Sequence record: PQ480333.1 | Reading direction: 5' to 3' (one strand) | DNA length: 64,000 nucleotides | Source: Escherichia phage NRG-P0074 | Shown: one piece after another, positions 1,984 to 60,974 of the stretch | How the letters are laid out: each line of letters starts with the position of its first letter | Position numbering within the stretch: position 1 is the first letter of the stretch | Notes under the pieces: generated by a model | Told to the model about the DNA's origin: nothing | The model's database searches: none | Seen by the model: the letters and a program-made list of their open reading frames with translations, nothing else | Position numbers and translations under genes: made by a program

Positions 1984-2022
1984 TTTACATAAGGATGATG
2001 GTGTGATACTATCATCCTATCA
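1984..2022 (+). promoter_or_regulatory. early sigma70-type promoter (GTTTAC -35, GATACT -10) embedded in inverted repeat AGGATGAT/ATCATCCT
   Basis: GTTTAC at 1984-1989, -10-like at 2005-2010, palindrome 1993-2000/2012-2019; recurring architecture in this window. Confidence 0.5.
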
Positions 2023-2046
2023 AATAAACAACCTCAAGGAAATAAA

Positions 2047-2334
2047 ATGAAATCCTATAAAGAATTTATATCACCTGTTGCTAACGTTTCTACTCTGACC
2101 GAAGCAACCCTTACTTCTGAAGTTATTAAAGCAAATAAAGGACGTGAGGGTAAACCAATGATTAGTCTGGTTGACGGCGAAGAAGTAAAAGGTACTGTTT
2201 ACTTAGGGGATGGATGGTCTGCTAAGAAAGATGGCGCTACTATTGTTATCTCTCCGGCTGAAGAGACTGCACTGTTTAAAGCTAAGCATATTTCTGTAGC
2301 TCAGCTTAAAATTATTGCAAAAACTCTTCTGTAA
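2047..2334 (+). CDS. internal head protein (IpI-like) with capsid targeting sequence
   Basis: 95 aa; N-terminus MKSYKEFISPVANVSTLTE resembles T4 internal-protein capsid targeting sequence; position next to 57B as T4 ipI. Confidence 0.6.
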   Translation: MKSYKEFISPVANVSTLTEATLTSEVIKANKGREGKPMISLVDGEEVKGTVYLGDGWSAKKDGATIVISPAEETALFKAKHISVAQLKIIAKTLL

Positions 2335-2337
2335 GTA

Positions 2338-2375
2338 GTTTACATGCTGATAGGACTATGTTATAGTAGTCCTAT
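2338..2375 (+). promoter_or_regulatory. early promoter with palindromic -10 module ATAGGACTA-TGTTATAG-TAGTCCTAT
   Basis: GTTTAC 2338-2343; 9-bp perfect inverted repeat flanking TATAGT; same module recurs at 3633, 13903, 54980. Confidence 0.55.
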
Positions 2376-2395
2376 CAAATTAAATGGAGTCCACA

Positions 2396-2635
2396 ATGAT
2401 TTATTACGAAAGTATCGGAACTAAAGTGGTTGCTAAAACCATTACTCGTGAAAAGTTTGCAAAGATATTCGATATGCGTTATAAAAAATCTGAACACAAA
2501 GGCATCCGATTCGAAGATGCGCACTGTACAATTTGCCCTTATAATGAAGACATAAACGGTACAATCGTTCCATTGGTAGAAGCTTCACATGATGACCTCT
2601 GGGATGAATATAATATCGCATGTCGTGAAATTTAA
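2396..2635 (+). CDS. hypothetical protein
   Basis: ORF with GGAG 6 nt upstream of ATG 2396 (alternative ATG at 2384); Cys/His-containing small protein. Confidence 0.5.
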   Translation: MIYYESIGTKVVAKTITREKFAKIFDMRYKKSEHKGIRFEDAHCTICPYNEDINGTIVPLVEASHDDLWDEYNIACREI

Positions 2636-2663
2636 GTTAATGAATTAATCCGAGGAAAATATT

Positions 2664-3620
2664 ATGATGTTAGTTATTGGTTCTCGTGCACTTCACTATC
2701 ATGGTCTTATTGATTCTAGCGCTATCAAAAATAGCGATTGGGACTTTATTGCGGACCAAGGTTCTTGGAATGCATTCAAAAATCAAATGATGGGTGTATA
2801 TGTTCACCAAGATAACCCTGATGTTCAAGTTTTCAAATGCTTACATAATGGATGCGAAACTCATTTTGAAGCATATATTGTTCCGGCAATCACTAATGTC
2901 CGTGAATTAGTCGGTGAACTCACTCCTGAAGATTTCACGTCTTCTTATGACCTTTTAAAATACGCCAAGAAAAATTTGACTAAAGACTGTTTGAACGGGT
3001 TTTACTGGGCAACTCCTGAGATATGTCTTGCAATTAAGATGTCTCATCGTTTCAAGAAAAATAATCCATTCTTTTTAAAGACTATGAACCATATTCAGTA
3101 TCTTCGTGGTAAAGGTGTTACACTGAACGATGAACTTACTGAAATTATGCTGAAACGCCAGAAAGAAACCTTGAACTATGCTCACCCGGTTCTTGACACT
3201 TCTAAAAGTGCGTTCTTTAAAGATGACATCTATACATATGACCACGATACTATTCATGAAGCCATTGCACTAACAGACCGTCCAGCTTATACATTTTACA
3301 TGAAAGATGGTTCTGAAGTCATGACCTCACGTGAGAAGTTCGAATCATTACCAGAAATGGTCAAATTGGCTGGTGTATACGAAGAATCATGTGTACTAGC
3401 ATTAGAACGTTCTCAAATTCCTAATGACTTTAAAATTAACCCTGAAGCCAGTTTCATGATGGCATTAGAAAAAGTCTGCACAAGCATCACCTCCGGTTGG
3501 TTCCGTGAATACGCCTGGGAAAACTACAGCAAAGTAGTAAGTATGTACCAAAGCTTAGGACATGACGATTACGTCAAACGTTTCAAACAAAATTTCCATA
3601 TGGTAAAACCTTTCAAATAA
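2664..3620 (+). CDS. hypothetical protein (weak nucleotidyltransferase-like GS...DWD motif)
   Basis: 318 aa ORF with RBS GAGGAAAA; N-terminal IGSRALHYHG...SDWDF only loosely fits pol-beta NTase motif. Confidence 0.55.
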   Translation: MMLVIGSRALHYHGLIDSSAIKNSDWDFIADQGSWNAFKNQMMGVYVHQDNPDVQVFKCLHNGCETHFEAYIVPAITNVRELVGELTPEDFTSSYDLLKYAKKNLTKDCLNGFYWATPEICLAIKMSHRFKKNNPFFLKTMNHIQYLRGKGVTLNDELTEIMLKRQKETLNYAHPVLDTSKSAFFKDDIYTYDHDTIHEAIALTDRPAYTFYMKDGSEVMTSREKFESLPEMVKLAGVYEESCVLALERSQIPNDFKINPEASFMMALEKVCTSITSGWFREYAWENYSKVVSMYQSLGHDDYVKRFKQNFHMVKPFK

Positions 3621-3632
3621 TTTCGCAAAACT

Positions 3633-58847: not shown

Positions 58848-58913
58848 TTTCTACAGTTTACATCCACTAAAAACTGTGTTAAGATATTCTTACTTACTCA
58901 AGAGGAGAACAAT

Positions 58914-59141
58914 ATGTTAAATCGTTGGATTAAACCTAATAACACATTAGGTGCTTTGATTGCTCAAGAAGTTTCATTGAAATACGGTCTTGGATATTAC
59001 GATGATGTAGTCGTACACTCATTCATGATGGATGGTGAAGACGTCAAATTTAATGCCGAAATCCGTTGGGATGATGGTGGTGTTCGTTTTGTTCGAGGAA
59101 CAATTAATGCTTACGATACTGAAGAAGTTGTTTGCTGTTAA
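58914..59141 (+). CDS. hypothetical protein
   Basis: ATG after early promoter GTTTAC 58857 and RBS GAGGAG. Confidence 0.45.
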   Translation: MLNRWIKPNNTLGALIAQEVSLKYGLGYYDDVVVHSFMMDGEDVKFNAEIRWDDGGVRFVRGTINAYDTEEVVCC

Positions 59142-59154
59142 ACCAGGCGAAGGT

Positions 59155-59355
59155 ATGATGCCTATTCCTGATACACATGAAAAGGCTTGGGAATACATTG
59201 GTGACGGCATGATAGAAGAAGTTGTTCGTCCAAAAACAAAACATGTTAATGCTTCAAGCTCTTCAAGTTATAATCATTCATACGTATCGTCTTGGCCTGG
59301 TGATTCTGGGTCAAGTTATTCTGATTGTGGTTCAAGCTCAGGGAGCTGCGAATGA
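59155..59355 (+). CDS. hypothetical Ser-rich protein
   Basis: 66 aa; RBS GAAGG. Confidence 0.4.
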   Translation: MMPIPDTHEKAWEYIGDGMIEEVVRPKTKHVNASSSSSYNHSYVSSWPGDSGSSYSDCGSSSGSCE

Positions 59356-59531
59356 ACAAGATAGTTAAATGGTTTAAAAGCTGGGACGATGGTGTCGGTC
59401 CAGAAGATTGGCTGGATGTTCTTGAAGAGAATATGGCTAAAGAATTCCAGAAACATGAAGAAAAGCTCGTCGAAGATGAAGGCGAACGTATTGTAAAACT
59501 TTATATGGGTGAACCATCGAGGAAATTATAA
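59352..59531 (+). CDS. hypothetical protein
   Basis: ATGA-coupled. Confidence 0.4.
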   Translation: MNKIVKWFKSWDDGVGPEDWLDVLEENMAKEFQKHEEKLVEDEGERIVKLYMGEPSRKL

Positions 59532-59995
59532 TGGATGCTATGTTATTTAAAATGTATTTGCTTGAAGCCAAGTCATTTAAACATATACCAGTGGAAGATA
59601 AGACTCCACTAGAAATAGCTATTCTCATTAACAAAAGTCTAAATAATCCGCAATATATCGTAGAAGAATTCTGCAAATTGCAGATTCCTAAAGGTTACAA
59701 AATTCGTGTAGAGCGAGTTGGAGCTATTACTCATTCTAAAAATTCTCCGTTTAGTCTTGAAGAAGGCATAAAGGACTTAGGTTATGAATCTACGGAAAAT
59801 GCCGTTTATGTGAATCCTGAAAAGCGTTTAGACTTGTTTGAAAAGCGAGACCATAAGTATTTTGCCAAAAAATACTTTATTACATCATTAGCAGATTTAA
59901 TCCATTTGCAACGAGCTATTTGGAAATTTTTTAAGACAAAAGGTGTAGCGCTAGAAACATTCTCCGAGCAGCCTAGTTTTTATTTAGGTGAATAA
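59531..59995 (+). CDS. hypothetical protein
   Basis: 154 aa. Confidence 0.5.
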   Translation: MDAMLFKMYLLEAKSFKHIPVEDKTPLEIAILINKSLNNPQYIVEEFCKLQIPKGYKIRVERVGAITHSKNSPFSLEEGIKDLGYESTENAVYVNPEKRLDLFEKRDHKYFAKKYFITSLADLIHLQRAIWKFFKTKGVALETFSEQPSFYLGE

Positions 59996-60176
59996 TATGG
60001 ACCTTATGAGTATGTTTGACGAGCCTGAAGTTGAGGCTCCTAAAGTGCATCGTAGTGAACTTGTTGATGAACTAGATAGTATTATACAACGACACGGCTT
60101 TAGTTTACCTGTTGAAGCCCTGAAAGACCTTGCCTCTTATTATGACGACCCTCCGCCATGGAGTCCTTGGAAATGA
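59988..60176 (+). CDS. hypothetical protein
   Basis: 62 aa. Confidence 0.45.
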   Translation: MNNMDLMSMFDEPEVEAPKVHRSELVDELDSIIQRHGFSLPVEALKDLASYYDDPPPWSPWK

Positions 60177-60337
60177 AAGAGAAATTTAAAGAGAAATTCT
60201 TACTAGAAATCAAGGAAAAAGACTTTGAGACATGGTATCGAATGGTGAAAGGGTTGACATTGCTTTTTAAAGCATCCTTATTCATGTTAGAACAACCTGG
60301 TCCTGATGGTCCTTTAGTAGGAAAGCTTAAAAAGTAG
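60173..60337 (+). CDS. hypothetical small protein (54 aa, below ORF-track cutoff)
   Basis: ATGA-coupled. Confidence 0.3.
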   Translation: MKEKFKEKFLLEIKEKDFETWYRMVKGLTLLFKASLFMLEQPGPDGPLVGKLKK

Positions 60338-60392
60338 TTTACATTCCCTCCTCTCGTGTTATGATAGGCTTATCTTTAAATGGAGGTCTATC

Positions 60393-60974
60393 ATGACATG
60401 TCAATCTGAACTTCAAGAACGTGAATACCTAACAAATCTGATTGATAGCAAATTCACCCGCCAAGAACAAAACATTCTCTGGGCTTGCACCGATTCTAAG
60501 GAAGACCCGGATTTCCACTATGAATTAGACCATCTTGTTCGTAAGCATATGACTTCTACAGTACCAGTAGAACTCTACCGTGGTGTAACTCCAGAAGAAG
60601 TAGAACGTCTTTCCCTTCTTTCTGTTGGATGCCATTGGTCTCCTGGACGAGTAACATCGTTCACAACTGATTTCAGTACAGCTCGTCAATTCTCCGGGAG
60701 TTGGGAATATCAGACGTACACTATTCTTAGTCTCAGGAATGCTCCATTCATTTTTGATTACTACCAAAACATGATTAACATTGTACTTGCCGGAAAGAAC
60801 CCTAAGCATGTTATGGAAGAAACTCGTATCGATGTCCTAGATATGATTGAATCTGAACAAGAGTACATGGTCTCAGGCATCTCTCGATTTGAGATTGTGG
60901 AAATTGAAGACTTAGAATATGACCCTTTATCTCGATTATACAAAATCATTCATTTGAAAATGTTGAATTTTTAG
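60393..60974 (+). CDS. modB: ADP-ribosyltransferase (ModA/ModB family), paralogue 1
   Basis: R-S-E triad layout: YRG, SFTTDFSTARQF, EQEYMV; paralogous to next gene; position as T4 modB/modA. Confidence 0.65.
   Translation: MTCQSELQEREYLTNLIDSKFTRQEQNILWACTDSKEDPDFHYELDHLVRKHMTSTVPVELYRGVTPEEVERLSLLSVGCHWSPGRVTSFTTDFSTARQFSGSWEYQTYTILSLRNAPFIFDYYQNMINIVLAGKNPKHVMEETRIDVLDMIESEQEYMVSGISRFEIVEIEDLEYDPLSRLYKIIHLKMLNF

Follow-up and report, generated by a model that had tools for sequence, protein, structure and literature searches.

Background

Promoter early stem-loops (PeSLs) combine an early promoter with a stem-loop, which often lies between the -35 and -10 elements or overlaps the -10; they recombine with one another and so shuffle open reading frames (ORFs) (PMC2839356, PMC4122927). 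T4 early promoters are built from the elements UP, -35, TGn and -10, and early transcripts continue into downstream genes (PMC2988021). In the T4 genes e, soc, 49 and I-TevI, the ribosome site is sequestered in a hairpin that contains a late promoter (PMC3014915). Here we examine the early promoters of Escherichia phage NRG-P0074 in a stretch of 64,000 nucleotides (nt) of sequence record PQ480333.1, which we refer to as the window. We describe 24 cassettes, and we think it likely that they are RB69-like units joining a T4-type early promoter to a translation-initiation region, that in a subset of them hairpins hide the Shine-Dalgarno (SD) sequence in read-through RNA, and that the cassettes are points of recombination.

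The window belongs to the genus Mosigvirus and, in alignment, is 93-98% identical to RB69 along its length; about 160 Mosigvirus genomes match its first 20 kb at 95-99% identity. Its early genes lie on the + strand. The gene order begins 3, 1, 57A/B, internal head protein (IP) genes, e, denV, regB, vs, tk, rI and nrdC.x, and continues with nrdD, 55, 47/46, 45/44/62, regA, 43, uvsX, 41, imm, sp, 61, 56, soc and modB/modA. An Rfam scan of the window matched no family, and the T4 GenBank and RefSeq records carry no annotated promoter features.

Early promoter cassettes of the window

We searched the window with a two-block position weight matrix (PWM; threshold at least 14 bits) and curated 24 intergenic sites. 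Each cassette is about 60 bp long, lies directly 5' of a gene start on the early strand, and comprises, in order, a GTTTAC-like -35, a spacer of 17-18 bp, a TGn-extended -10, a CCTATC start region, a leader, an SD sequence and ATG. The consensus has an A-rich upstream region (a..aAa.aGTTTACa) and, beyond the spacer, tgTGtTAt.AT followed by a.acCTAtCaA. The -35 is exactly GTTTAC in 19 cassettes, GTGTAC in three and ATGTAC in two. The leader, often ATCAACTAC followed by GGAG or GAGG and ATG, is 20-25 nt long at 21 of the 23 sites measured, and the distance to the gene start ranges from 20 to 43 nt across all 24. We took the A of CTATC, 7 nt after the -10, as the predicted transcription start (+1), and the contrast between short and long RNAs drawn below rests on this prediction.

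The pattern GTTTAC-N15-19-TAnnnT occurs 24 times on the + strand of the window and three times on the - strand; at 14 bits or more the PWM finds 29 sites on the + strand, none on the - strand and 0-3 in shuffled sequence. A generic sigma-70 scan shows no enrichment (74 sites found against 67 expected); what recurs is thus a T4-specific promoter form. For all but one of the 24 cassettes, RB69 has a matching annotated gene start and a matching entry in the published list of its predicted early promoters (PMC1524935), for example Pe:61376 (regB), Pe:64934 (denV) and Pe:13466 (modB). The exception, at 61715, lies beyond the RB69 stretch compared, and its equivalence to Pe:12088 is presumed only. 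In both form (-35, spacer and extended -10) and position (5' of early-strand genes and orthologous to promoters of relatives) the sites match T4-type early promoters, and host sigma-70 RNA polymerase would read them immediately after infection. They cluster at 2-30 kb and 53-62 kb, with none in the conserved 30-53 kb replication block, and several precede RB69 'novel ORFs', as PeSLs do in hyperplastic regions next to ORFans.

An earlier note on this DNA had proposed at least 20 such sites, read as early promoters in front of small genes and forming two palindrome families. The recurrence and the predicted promoter identity stand, the latter because all 24 sites precede early-strand genes and 23 coincide with RB69 predictions. 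The series runs on to 61715, past the proposed end at 60400, and the genes served include small ones but also regB, denV, modA/B and nrdC.x genes of about 320 amino acids. The 26-bp sequence of family A is present exactly at 2350, with one mismatch at 3645 and with two at 13915 (not 13912), against 0.00 copies expected; the copy at 54991 is degenerate, with a stem of 6+3 bp. The core of family B, TGTTATTATAGACCTATC, occurs exactly at 17002 (not 16998) and 17282, with one mismatch at 18760 (not 18761) and 53687, and with two at 10236; there are nine matches with up to three mismatches, against 0.08 expected. 'Family B' is a shared -10 and start-region consensus, not a palindrome family, and hairpins are short in some members, long in others and absent from the rest. 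A duplicated 26-bp module is indeed present, at 20382 and 21402 (not 20383 and 21394), within an identical run that is really 27 bp long and begins at 20381 and 21401. The division into two families gives way to natural classes that follow hairpin geometry.

Within genes, a further match at 23783-23812 (GTTTAC-N18-TATGAT, PWM score 28.2) lacks the standard leader and SD and probably corresponds to RB69 Pe:48639; additional intragenic early-promoter matches lie at 22378 and 26855.

Geometry and site specificity of the inverted repeats

We defined a strong inverted repeat as a duplex of -10.9 kcal/mol or lower. The earlier idea of a perfect inverted repeat with the -10 in its loop applies to 14 of the 24 cassettes, the other ten having no meaningful repeat. 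The 14 comprise seven short hairpins and seven long or SD-pairing hairpins. In the short geometry (1983, 2338, 3633, 13903, 18739, 29119 and 54979), a spacer arm of 7-13 bp pairs with the -10-proximal start region, at about -10 to +6. In the long geometry (6659 denV, 10216 regB, 13454, 27992, 53233 and 53667), pairing is between the spacer arm and the leader and SD, across a loop of 15-25 nt. A third geometry (60337, modB) pairs the -10 and start region with the end of the SD and the AUG. The 5' arm occupies positions from about -29 to -15, except at modB, where it ends at about +1. Inner and outer stems are nested at 13454 and in some orthologues, and the cassette as a whole approximates a palindrome with the -10 at its apex. 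The stems of regB and of cassette 53667 are perfect 14-mers that differ from one another by compensatory changes.

We found that spacers pair with their own downstream sequence (-11.5 kcal/mol) far better than with that of other cassettes (-7.2 kcal/mol; P < 5e-5 by permutation within the window). As the consensus is common to all sites, this complementarity is site-specific and not a by-product of the consensus.

Under the classical PeSL model, the stem-loops would be terminators or attenuators isolating each ORF from upstream transcription. Such activity has precedent, in that a phi1/RB49 PeSL stem-loop cut lacZ expression about as much as rrnB T1 (PMC2839356), and the short hairpins of the window begin 10-25 nt after the upstream stop codon. 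However, the embedded stems are AT-rich with few G-C pairs and are followed by CAAA-type sequence, with no U-tract; by sequence they thus lack the terminator property of PeSLs. None of the nine embedded hairpins (of 14) in the 1-20 kb stretch covered by our terminator scan was called terminator-like, the loops of the long hairpins span 15-25 nt, and real UUCG terminators are present as separate hairpins upstream of four cassettes, two with an embedded stem (13454 and 53233) and two without (16982 and 58856). We therefore regard termination by the embedded stems as unlikely. A contrasting arrangement is found in four denV orthologues on jumbo-phage contigs of about 345-378 kb, which have a hairpin in the 60 nt upstream of the gene. 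This hairpin is G/C-rich, is followed by a U-run, and has a TTGAC -35 before it and a TATAAT -10 after it (for example GGGTTGACTTCGGTCAGCCCTTTTTGCTATAAT). It lends the terminator model some support, being a true promoter-embedded terminator like the RB49-type PeSLs; T-even-type phages use SD pairing instead.

Ribosome sites and a proposed translational gate

A transcript that begins at the cassette's own predicted start leaves out the 5' arm, which is upstream of it, and so has no hairpin; only read-through RNA can form one. The mean cost of opening the region from SD to AUG is 6.6 kcal/mol in the long RNA and 2.3 kcal/mol in the own-promoter RNA; at the seven SD-pairing sites it rises from 0.8-4.1 kcal/mol in the short RNA to 6.3-19.3 kcal/mol in the long RNA. 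By the same metric, non-cassette genes have a median of 5.2 kcal/mol, with e (16.8), 49 (14.1) and soc (10.4) among the top six. Seven cassettes thus have the SD or AUG paired in upstream-initiated RNA and, given the predicted +1, a proximal transcript that lacks the 5' arm.

The effect does not extend to every cassette. A control in which upstream sequences were swapped over 23 sites was not significant (P = 0.75), as only the long-hairpin class shows the effect, and the claim that all cassettes gate translation was dropped. Short hairpins do not mask the SD; if anything, opening costs less with their own upstream sequence than with swapped ones. The short, inner hairpin is an intercistronic stem and might serve as a stabiliser of 3' ends, an attenuator or an insulator, although such a role is a guess.

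The opening costs and the likeness to e, 49 and soc lead us to propose that, through their long hairpins, regB, denV, modB and others are translated only from the immediate-early transcript of their own promoter. An outer hairpin, or one formed by the -10 and start region, would bury the ribosome site of denV, regB, mobD.2a, the 55.6-like gene, ORF041c, ORF040c and modB, and translation of these genes would depend almost wholly on their own immediate-early transcripts. Since cleavage by RegB is blocked by secondary structure (RegB review), the long hairpins would also shield GGAG from RegB in long RNAs.

Strongly occluded ribosome sites also exist outside cassettes, at the gene starts 545, 5891, 13106, 24495 and 58574; the genes, in order of falling opening cost, are e, gene 1, 49, rI and soc. 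Among these, gene 1 (16.3 kcal/mol) and rI (11.2 kcal/mol) are not among the T4 cases of PMC3014915. Upstream of gene 55, an extended -10 (TGATATAAT, 30343-30351) and a CCTAT start region are flanked by an 8-bp inverted repeat (ATAGGTCT, 30325-30332, and AGACCTAT, 30352-30359). A Mot-box-like TGCTT at 30316-30320 is too far from the TATAAT for a canonical middle promoter, and the SD is buried by a larger fold (13.6 kcal/mol to open; region 30316-30383). This element may be 'PmSL'-like.

Conservation in T4 and other relatives

The spacer-to-SD arrangement recurs in T4, both at regB (TTTTCCTCTTGACTG / CAGTTAAGAGGAGAA) and at denV (TCTCCTGTAG / CTACAGGAGA), and equivalent elements were found at T4 ipI and trna.4. 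Among orthologues from IMG/VR phages, the hairpin is kept in all regB genes at 57-98% protein identity, with differing distal arms; in the stretch that we examined, no spacer-SD hairpin is present in one regB orthologue at 40% identity. The 5' arm of the denV orthologues is formed by the spacer in some and by the -10 and start region in others, and the 3' arm remains the SD. Because a MAFFT alignment of cassettes mis-registered the arms, it was replaced by permutation tests and a gapless tally anchored on CTCC/GGAG. Arm pairing is significant for both 11 regB and 32 denV orthologue sequences (P < 5e-5 by permutation). In the CTCC/GGAG register, five positions beyond the SD (5-9) form Watson-Crick pairs in 14-18 of the 20 distinct sequences, with two to four pair types per column. 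The short stems at the 57B-IP junction likewise vary in sequence while keeping complementarity (P < 5e-5), and are absent from three of 14 distinct sequences. The compensatory changes expected of a translational gate are thus present, which suggests that the hairpins are under selection.

These data bear on the possibility that the repeats have no function and are by-products of a strong promoter and leader consensus and of recent cassette copying. In families A and B and in the 27-bp core, the sequences are plainly copies of each other, and ten cassettes work, as predictions, without a hairpin. Copying of a consensus would not, however, account for own-site pairing far above cross-site pairing, nor for multiple compensatory pair types at regB and denV orthologues with 57-98% protein identity; this explanation is already disfavoured, and we consider it very improbable indeed.

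More broadly, we suggest, as a tentative possibility, that an 'own-promoter-only' translational gate acts on a subset of early genes throughout the Tevenvirinae, including T4, with the spacer serving as the anti-SD strand, so that delayed-early and middle read-through RNA would be translationally silent and RegB-resistant at these cistrons.

Two variations were seen among the relatives. Two regB orthologues and one denV orthologue have an inner G/C-rich stem around the -10 (GGGCCATgaTACTATGGCCC) within the outer spacer-SD stem. Many T4-like phages have no cassette between 57B and the first IP gene, which begins at the 57B stop codon or overlaps it (ATGA), so the junction cassette has itself been gained and lost between lineages.

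Recombination and gene-block shuffling

Comparison of the window with mar005P1, RB69 and ECO111 revealed 19 distinct indel or replacement events. In five of them the homology overlap falls within a cassette or its terminator, and two replacements are bounded by cassettes. The largest is a block of 6.7-7.1 kb (trna.2-4, two tRNAs, e.3-e.8 and ORFans) which is present in all three relatives and missing from the window, where ARAGORN finds no tRNA gene. At the junction (2337-2390), the window agrees with the left copy as far as GATAGGACT and with the right copy from CAAATTAAATGG onward; these matches overlap, which places the deletion crossover within CTATGTTATAGTAGTCCTATCAAA. A unit of promoter and 72-amino-acid ORF (17037-17270), bounded by the 19-bp core ATGTTATTATAGACCTATC and flanked by cassettes 16982 and 17262, is absent from mar005P1. 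RB69 has an extra IP gene whose junction lies in the cassette and the first IP codons, an ORF insertion joins at the -35 of cassette 3633, and an indel relative to ECO111 involves a 594-bp unit that has a copy of the terminator hairpin (13415-13443) on either side. Events at the IP locus fall at 2015-2069 and 2069-2333, the latter being an IP allele replaced between cassettes; a vs.3-like gene, also replaced between cassettes, ends 4 nt before the regB -35.

Cassettes share identical cores of 19-27 bp in direct orientation, which makes them substrates for homologous recombination, and recombination between them would delete, insert or swap the intervening genes. The crossovers map to the loop and 3' arm. 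Tandem gene duplication was considered as the origin of the 27-bp duplicate and rejected, as the nrdC.5 and nrdC.3 proteins are unrelated (BLASTP E = 0.45); an identical core in front of unrelated proteins indicates that promoter cores move independently of coding sequence.

About ten of the 19 events lie away from cassettes. Among such events, four ORFs of 238-284 amino acids are present in the window but not in RB69 or ECO111, in the regions 15173-15944, 33184-34260, 35937-36744 (ORF on the - strand) and 45402-46123. The ORF at 45383-46144 encodes a GIY-YIG Seg-like homing endonuclease with an I-TevI DNA-binding domain and NUMOD motifs; that at 15182-15964 gives an HNH hint below threshold only, and the other two have no firm Pfam match.

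Points against the proposal

Several points weigh against the combined reading of the cassettes as promoters, translational gates and recombination points. The sequence itself shows the architecture, the site-specific pairing, the covariation and the crossover junctions, and from these we infer promoter activity, start sites and RNA-level effects. The ten hairpin-free cassettes imply that stems are not required for promoter function, and real upstream terminators at four cassettes make read-through, and hence gating, partly redundant there. In T4, the RegB resistance of the denV SD was ascribed to its 3' sequence, and in vitro probing found the denV GGAG unstructured, in an RNA for which inclusion of the spacer arm is not stated (PMC1702504). 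About 8-9 of the 19 indel junctions fall at cassettes, a modest enrichment over a null of random gene boundaries, so that the argument for recombination depends on the overlaps in homology. The tRNA-block junction is also rare: of the 219 related records searched, 218 break alignment at the cassette, and the sole exception is the partial genome of O157 typing phage 13, which has Ns adjoining the junction and crosses over at a different point. Either the deletion is a rare natural variant or the assembly was misjoined at a repeated cassette.

Finally, sense and antisense folds are equally stable, and thus sequence alone cannot favour RNA over single-stranded or cruciform DNA. The repeats could accordingly be DNA-level elements, either cruciforms or single-stranded hairpins or sites for a dimeric protein, that serve in early-promoter shut-off or recombination targeting. 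Consistent with this, nearly all pairs in the stems are Watson-Crick and the sense strand has no bias toward G.U, the crossovers occur at the loop and 3' arm, a pattern also reported of the mini-circles from RB49 PeSLs, and the mechanism of T4 early-promoter shut-off is still unknown (PMC2988021, PMC3014915). However, the arms vary by site and orthologue while complementarity persists, which implies that there is no common operator; loops of 15-25 nt make poor cruciforms; and the 3' arm tracks the SD even when the 5' arm shifts from the spacer to the -10 and start region, which is only sensible for mRNA. A DNA-level role is, on this evidence, quite improbable.

Table 1. Early promoter cassettes and adjoining terminator hairpins of the window. 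Energies are in kcal/mol; SD opening costs are given for long / short RNA.
Feature	Coordinates	Strand	Hairpin	Arms (5' / 3')	Duplex	SD opening	Remarks
IP gene (RB69p156 homologue)	1983..2049	+	short	1991-2002 / 2009-2019	-14.6		-35 1983-1988, -10 2007-2012, predicted +1 near 2019, ATG 2047; RB69 Pe:77187
RB69ORF135c homologue	2338..2398	+	short	2347-2360 / 2365-2378	-18.1		family A; -10 2362-2367, ATG 2396; chimera left by the 6.7-7.1 kb deletion
RB69ORF133c homologue	3633..3693	+	short	3644-3655 / 3660-3671	-13.1		family A; indel junction at its -35
denV	6659..6718	+	long	spacer 6664-6684 (TTCCTCCAAG) / leader and SD 6694-6713 (CTTGGAGGAA)	-20.3	9.5 / 2.8	
RB69ORF124c homologue	7400..7462	+	none significant		-2.5		
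regB	10216..10275	+	long, 14-bp perfect stem	TTCTCCTCTAGTTG (within 10221-10236) / CAACTAGAGGAGAA (within 10252-10267)	-23.4	15.2 / 2.9	SD inside 3' arm
Terminator-like hairpin	13415..13438	+					AGCCCC...GGGGCT, then T-run; just upstream of cassette 13454
mobD.2a	13454..13512	+	long, nested inner stem	TTCTCCTC (13459-13473) / GAGGAGAA (13483-13506)	-15.5	11.9 / 2.6	
Small ORF	13903..13963	+	short, 13-bp stem	13911-13925 / 13930-13944	-21.0		family A
UUCG-loop terminator-like hairpin	near 16936-16953						upstream of cassette 16982
RB69ORF102c homologue	16982..17043	+	none				-35 GTGTAC; family B core 17002-17019
nrdC.10	17262..17332	+	none				family B core 17282-17299
nrdC.8	18739..18798	+	short	AGGTCTAT (18746-18757) / ATAGACCT (18765-18775)	-14.9		
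nrdC.5	20378..20436	+					-35 ATGTAC; 27-bp core TACAACCAAGGATGGTTGGAGTATAAT, with 6-bp palindrome CAACCA / TGGTTG within spacer
nrdC.3	21398..21458	+					27-bp core identical to that of nrdC.5
gp55.6-like ORF	27992..28051	+	long, interrupted, over SD	27998-28014 / 28025-28042	-10.9	8.6 / 0.8	
RB69ORF075c homologue	29119..29182	+	short, 12-bp stem	ACGATAGGAAGA (29125-29138) / TCTTCCTATCGT (29147-29160)	-18.8		-35 ATGTAC
UUCG-loop terminator hairpin after gene 41	53207..53228	+					RB69 TransTerm terminator 'RB69ORF041c<--41'
RB69ORF041c homologue	53233..53294	+	long	TTCCTCT (53241-53252) / AGAGGAA (53275-53286)	-12.8	6.3 / 2.6	directly downstream of terminator
RB69ORF040c homologue	53667..53724	+	long, 14-bp perfect stem	TTCTCCAGTAGTTG (53672-53687) / CAACTACTGGAGAA (53703-53718)	-22.9	18.6 / 1.7	
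imm.1	54238..54298	+	none				
imm	54668..54728	+	none				
sp (spackle)	54979..55040	+	short	54990-55001 / 55006-55018	-12.4		degenerate family A
UUCG-loop terminator and T-run	about 58818-58839						adjoins mrh.2 cassette upstream; RB69 terminator 'mrh.2<--soc'
mrh.2	58856..58916	+	none embedded				
modB	60337..60395	+	third geometry	-10 and start region (60358-60372) / SD end and AUG (60383-60398)	-19.5	19.3 / 4.1	
modA	60974..61034	+	weak pairing		-8.0		-35 GTGTAC
Cassette 61715	61715..61795	+	weak pairing				-35 GTGTAC; longer, 43-nt leader

Implications

The analysis maps 24 cassettes of early promoter and translation-initiation region precisely in a member of Mosigvirus, a genus used for phage therapy, and identifies these cassettes as breakpoints at which such phages gain or lose accessory genes, here including a whole tRNA block whose loss bears on codon supply and host adaptation. 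If the proposed gate is real, regB, denV, modB and several ORFans would be expressed strictly as immediate-early genes. T4 regB and denV would then be translated only from their own immediate-early transcripts, refining the distinction between immediate-early and delayed-early genes; the escape of some GGAG sites from RegB would be explained; and the PeSL stem-loops of T-even-type phages would be translational, not transcriptional, insulators. Synthetic biology could also take the cassettes as natural models of compact expression units that insulate themselves.

Comparison with known systems

Most of this feature is already understood: early promoters acting as PeSL-like recombination modules, now documented in Mosigvirus. 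The spacer-to-SD hairpin is a moderately novel extension. The same promoters appear in the study of RB69 by Nolan et al. (2006), which reports a promoter logo only and in which neither 'inverted repeat' nor 'palindrom' occurs (PMC1524935); the words 'translation' and 'ribosome' are likewise absent from PMC2839356, and the RegB review mentions no regB hairpin. A gate formed by an early promoter and an SD hairpin is not described in the literature searched, although older T4 literature may hold a prior description.

The resemblance to PeSLs suggested in the earlier note is upheld, as the cassettes combine early promoter, stem-loop and SD/ATG, with an embedded stem in 14 of 24 and an upstream terminator hairpin in four of 24, and crossovers relative to RB69, mar005P1 and ECO111 fall inside them, as crossovers between close relatives do within PeSLs. 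Like the PeSLs of phi1/RB49 (PMC2839356), they are composite elements in front of accessory genes, with a stem-loop often between the -35 and -10 or over the -10, and crossovers between copies, located between the -10 and SD or in the loop, delete or insert ORFs. The phi1/RB49 elements differ in having a near-consensus TTGACA and G/C-rich terminating stems, whereas the window cassettes have a GTTTAC -35 and AT-rich stems, and half of their strong stems pair with the SD. The T4/PST PeSLs (PMC4122927) are similar in consensus (TTTACW N17 TAYWAT) and in having a terminator just upstream, as four window cassettes do, and the T-even IP-locus elements (Repoila et al. 1994, cited in PMC2839356) share the link with IP-gene shuffling. 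The papers on these two systems place the stem-loop just upstream of the promoter and describe none that encloses the -10 or reaches the SD.

The closest parallel to the SD-pairing cassettes is the gate at T4 e, soc, 49 and I-TevI (PMC3014915), where the SD or AUG is also paired in the long RNA, a promoter lies inside the hairpin, which leaves the proximal transcript without the 5' arm, and opening energies are comparable. The internal promoter there is late (gp55, TATAAATA), whereas here it is of the early sigma-70 type, which makes the SD-occluding cassettes an analogue and not a member of that set. The predicted outcomes differ correspondingly: translation would be immediate-early-only from the window cassettes and late-only from e, soc, 49 and I-TevI.

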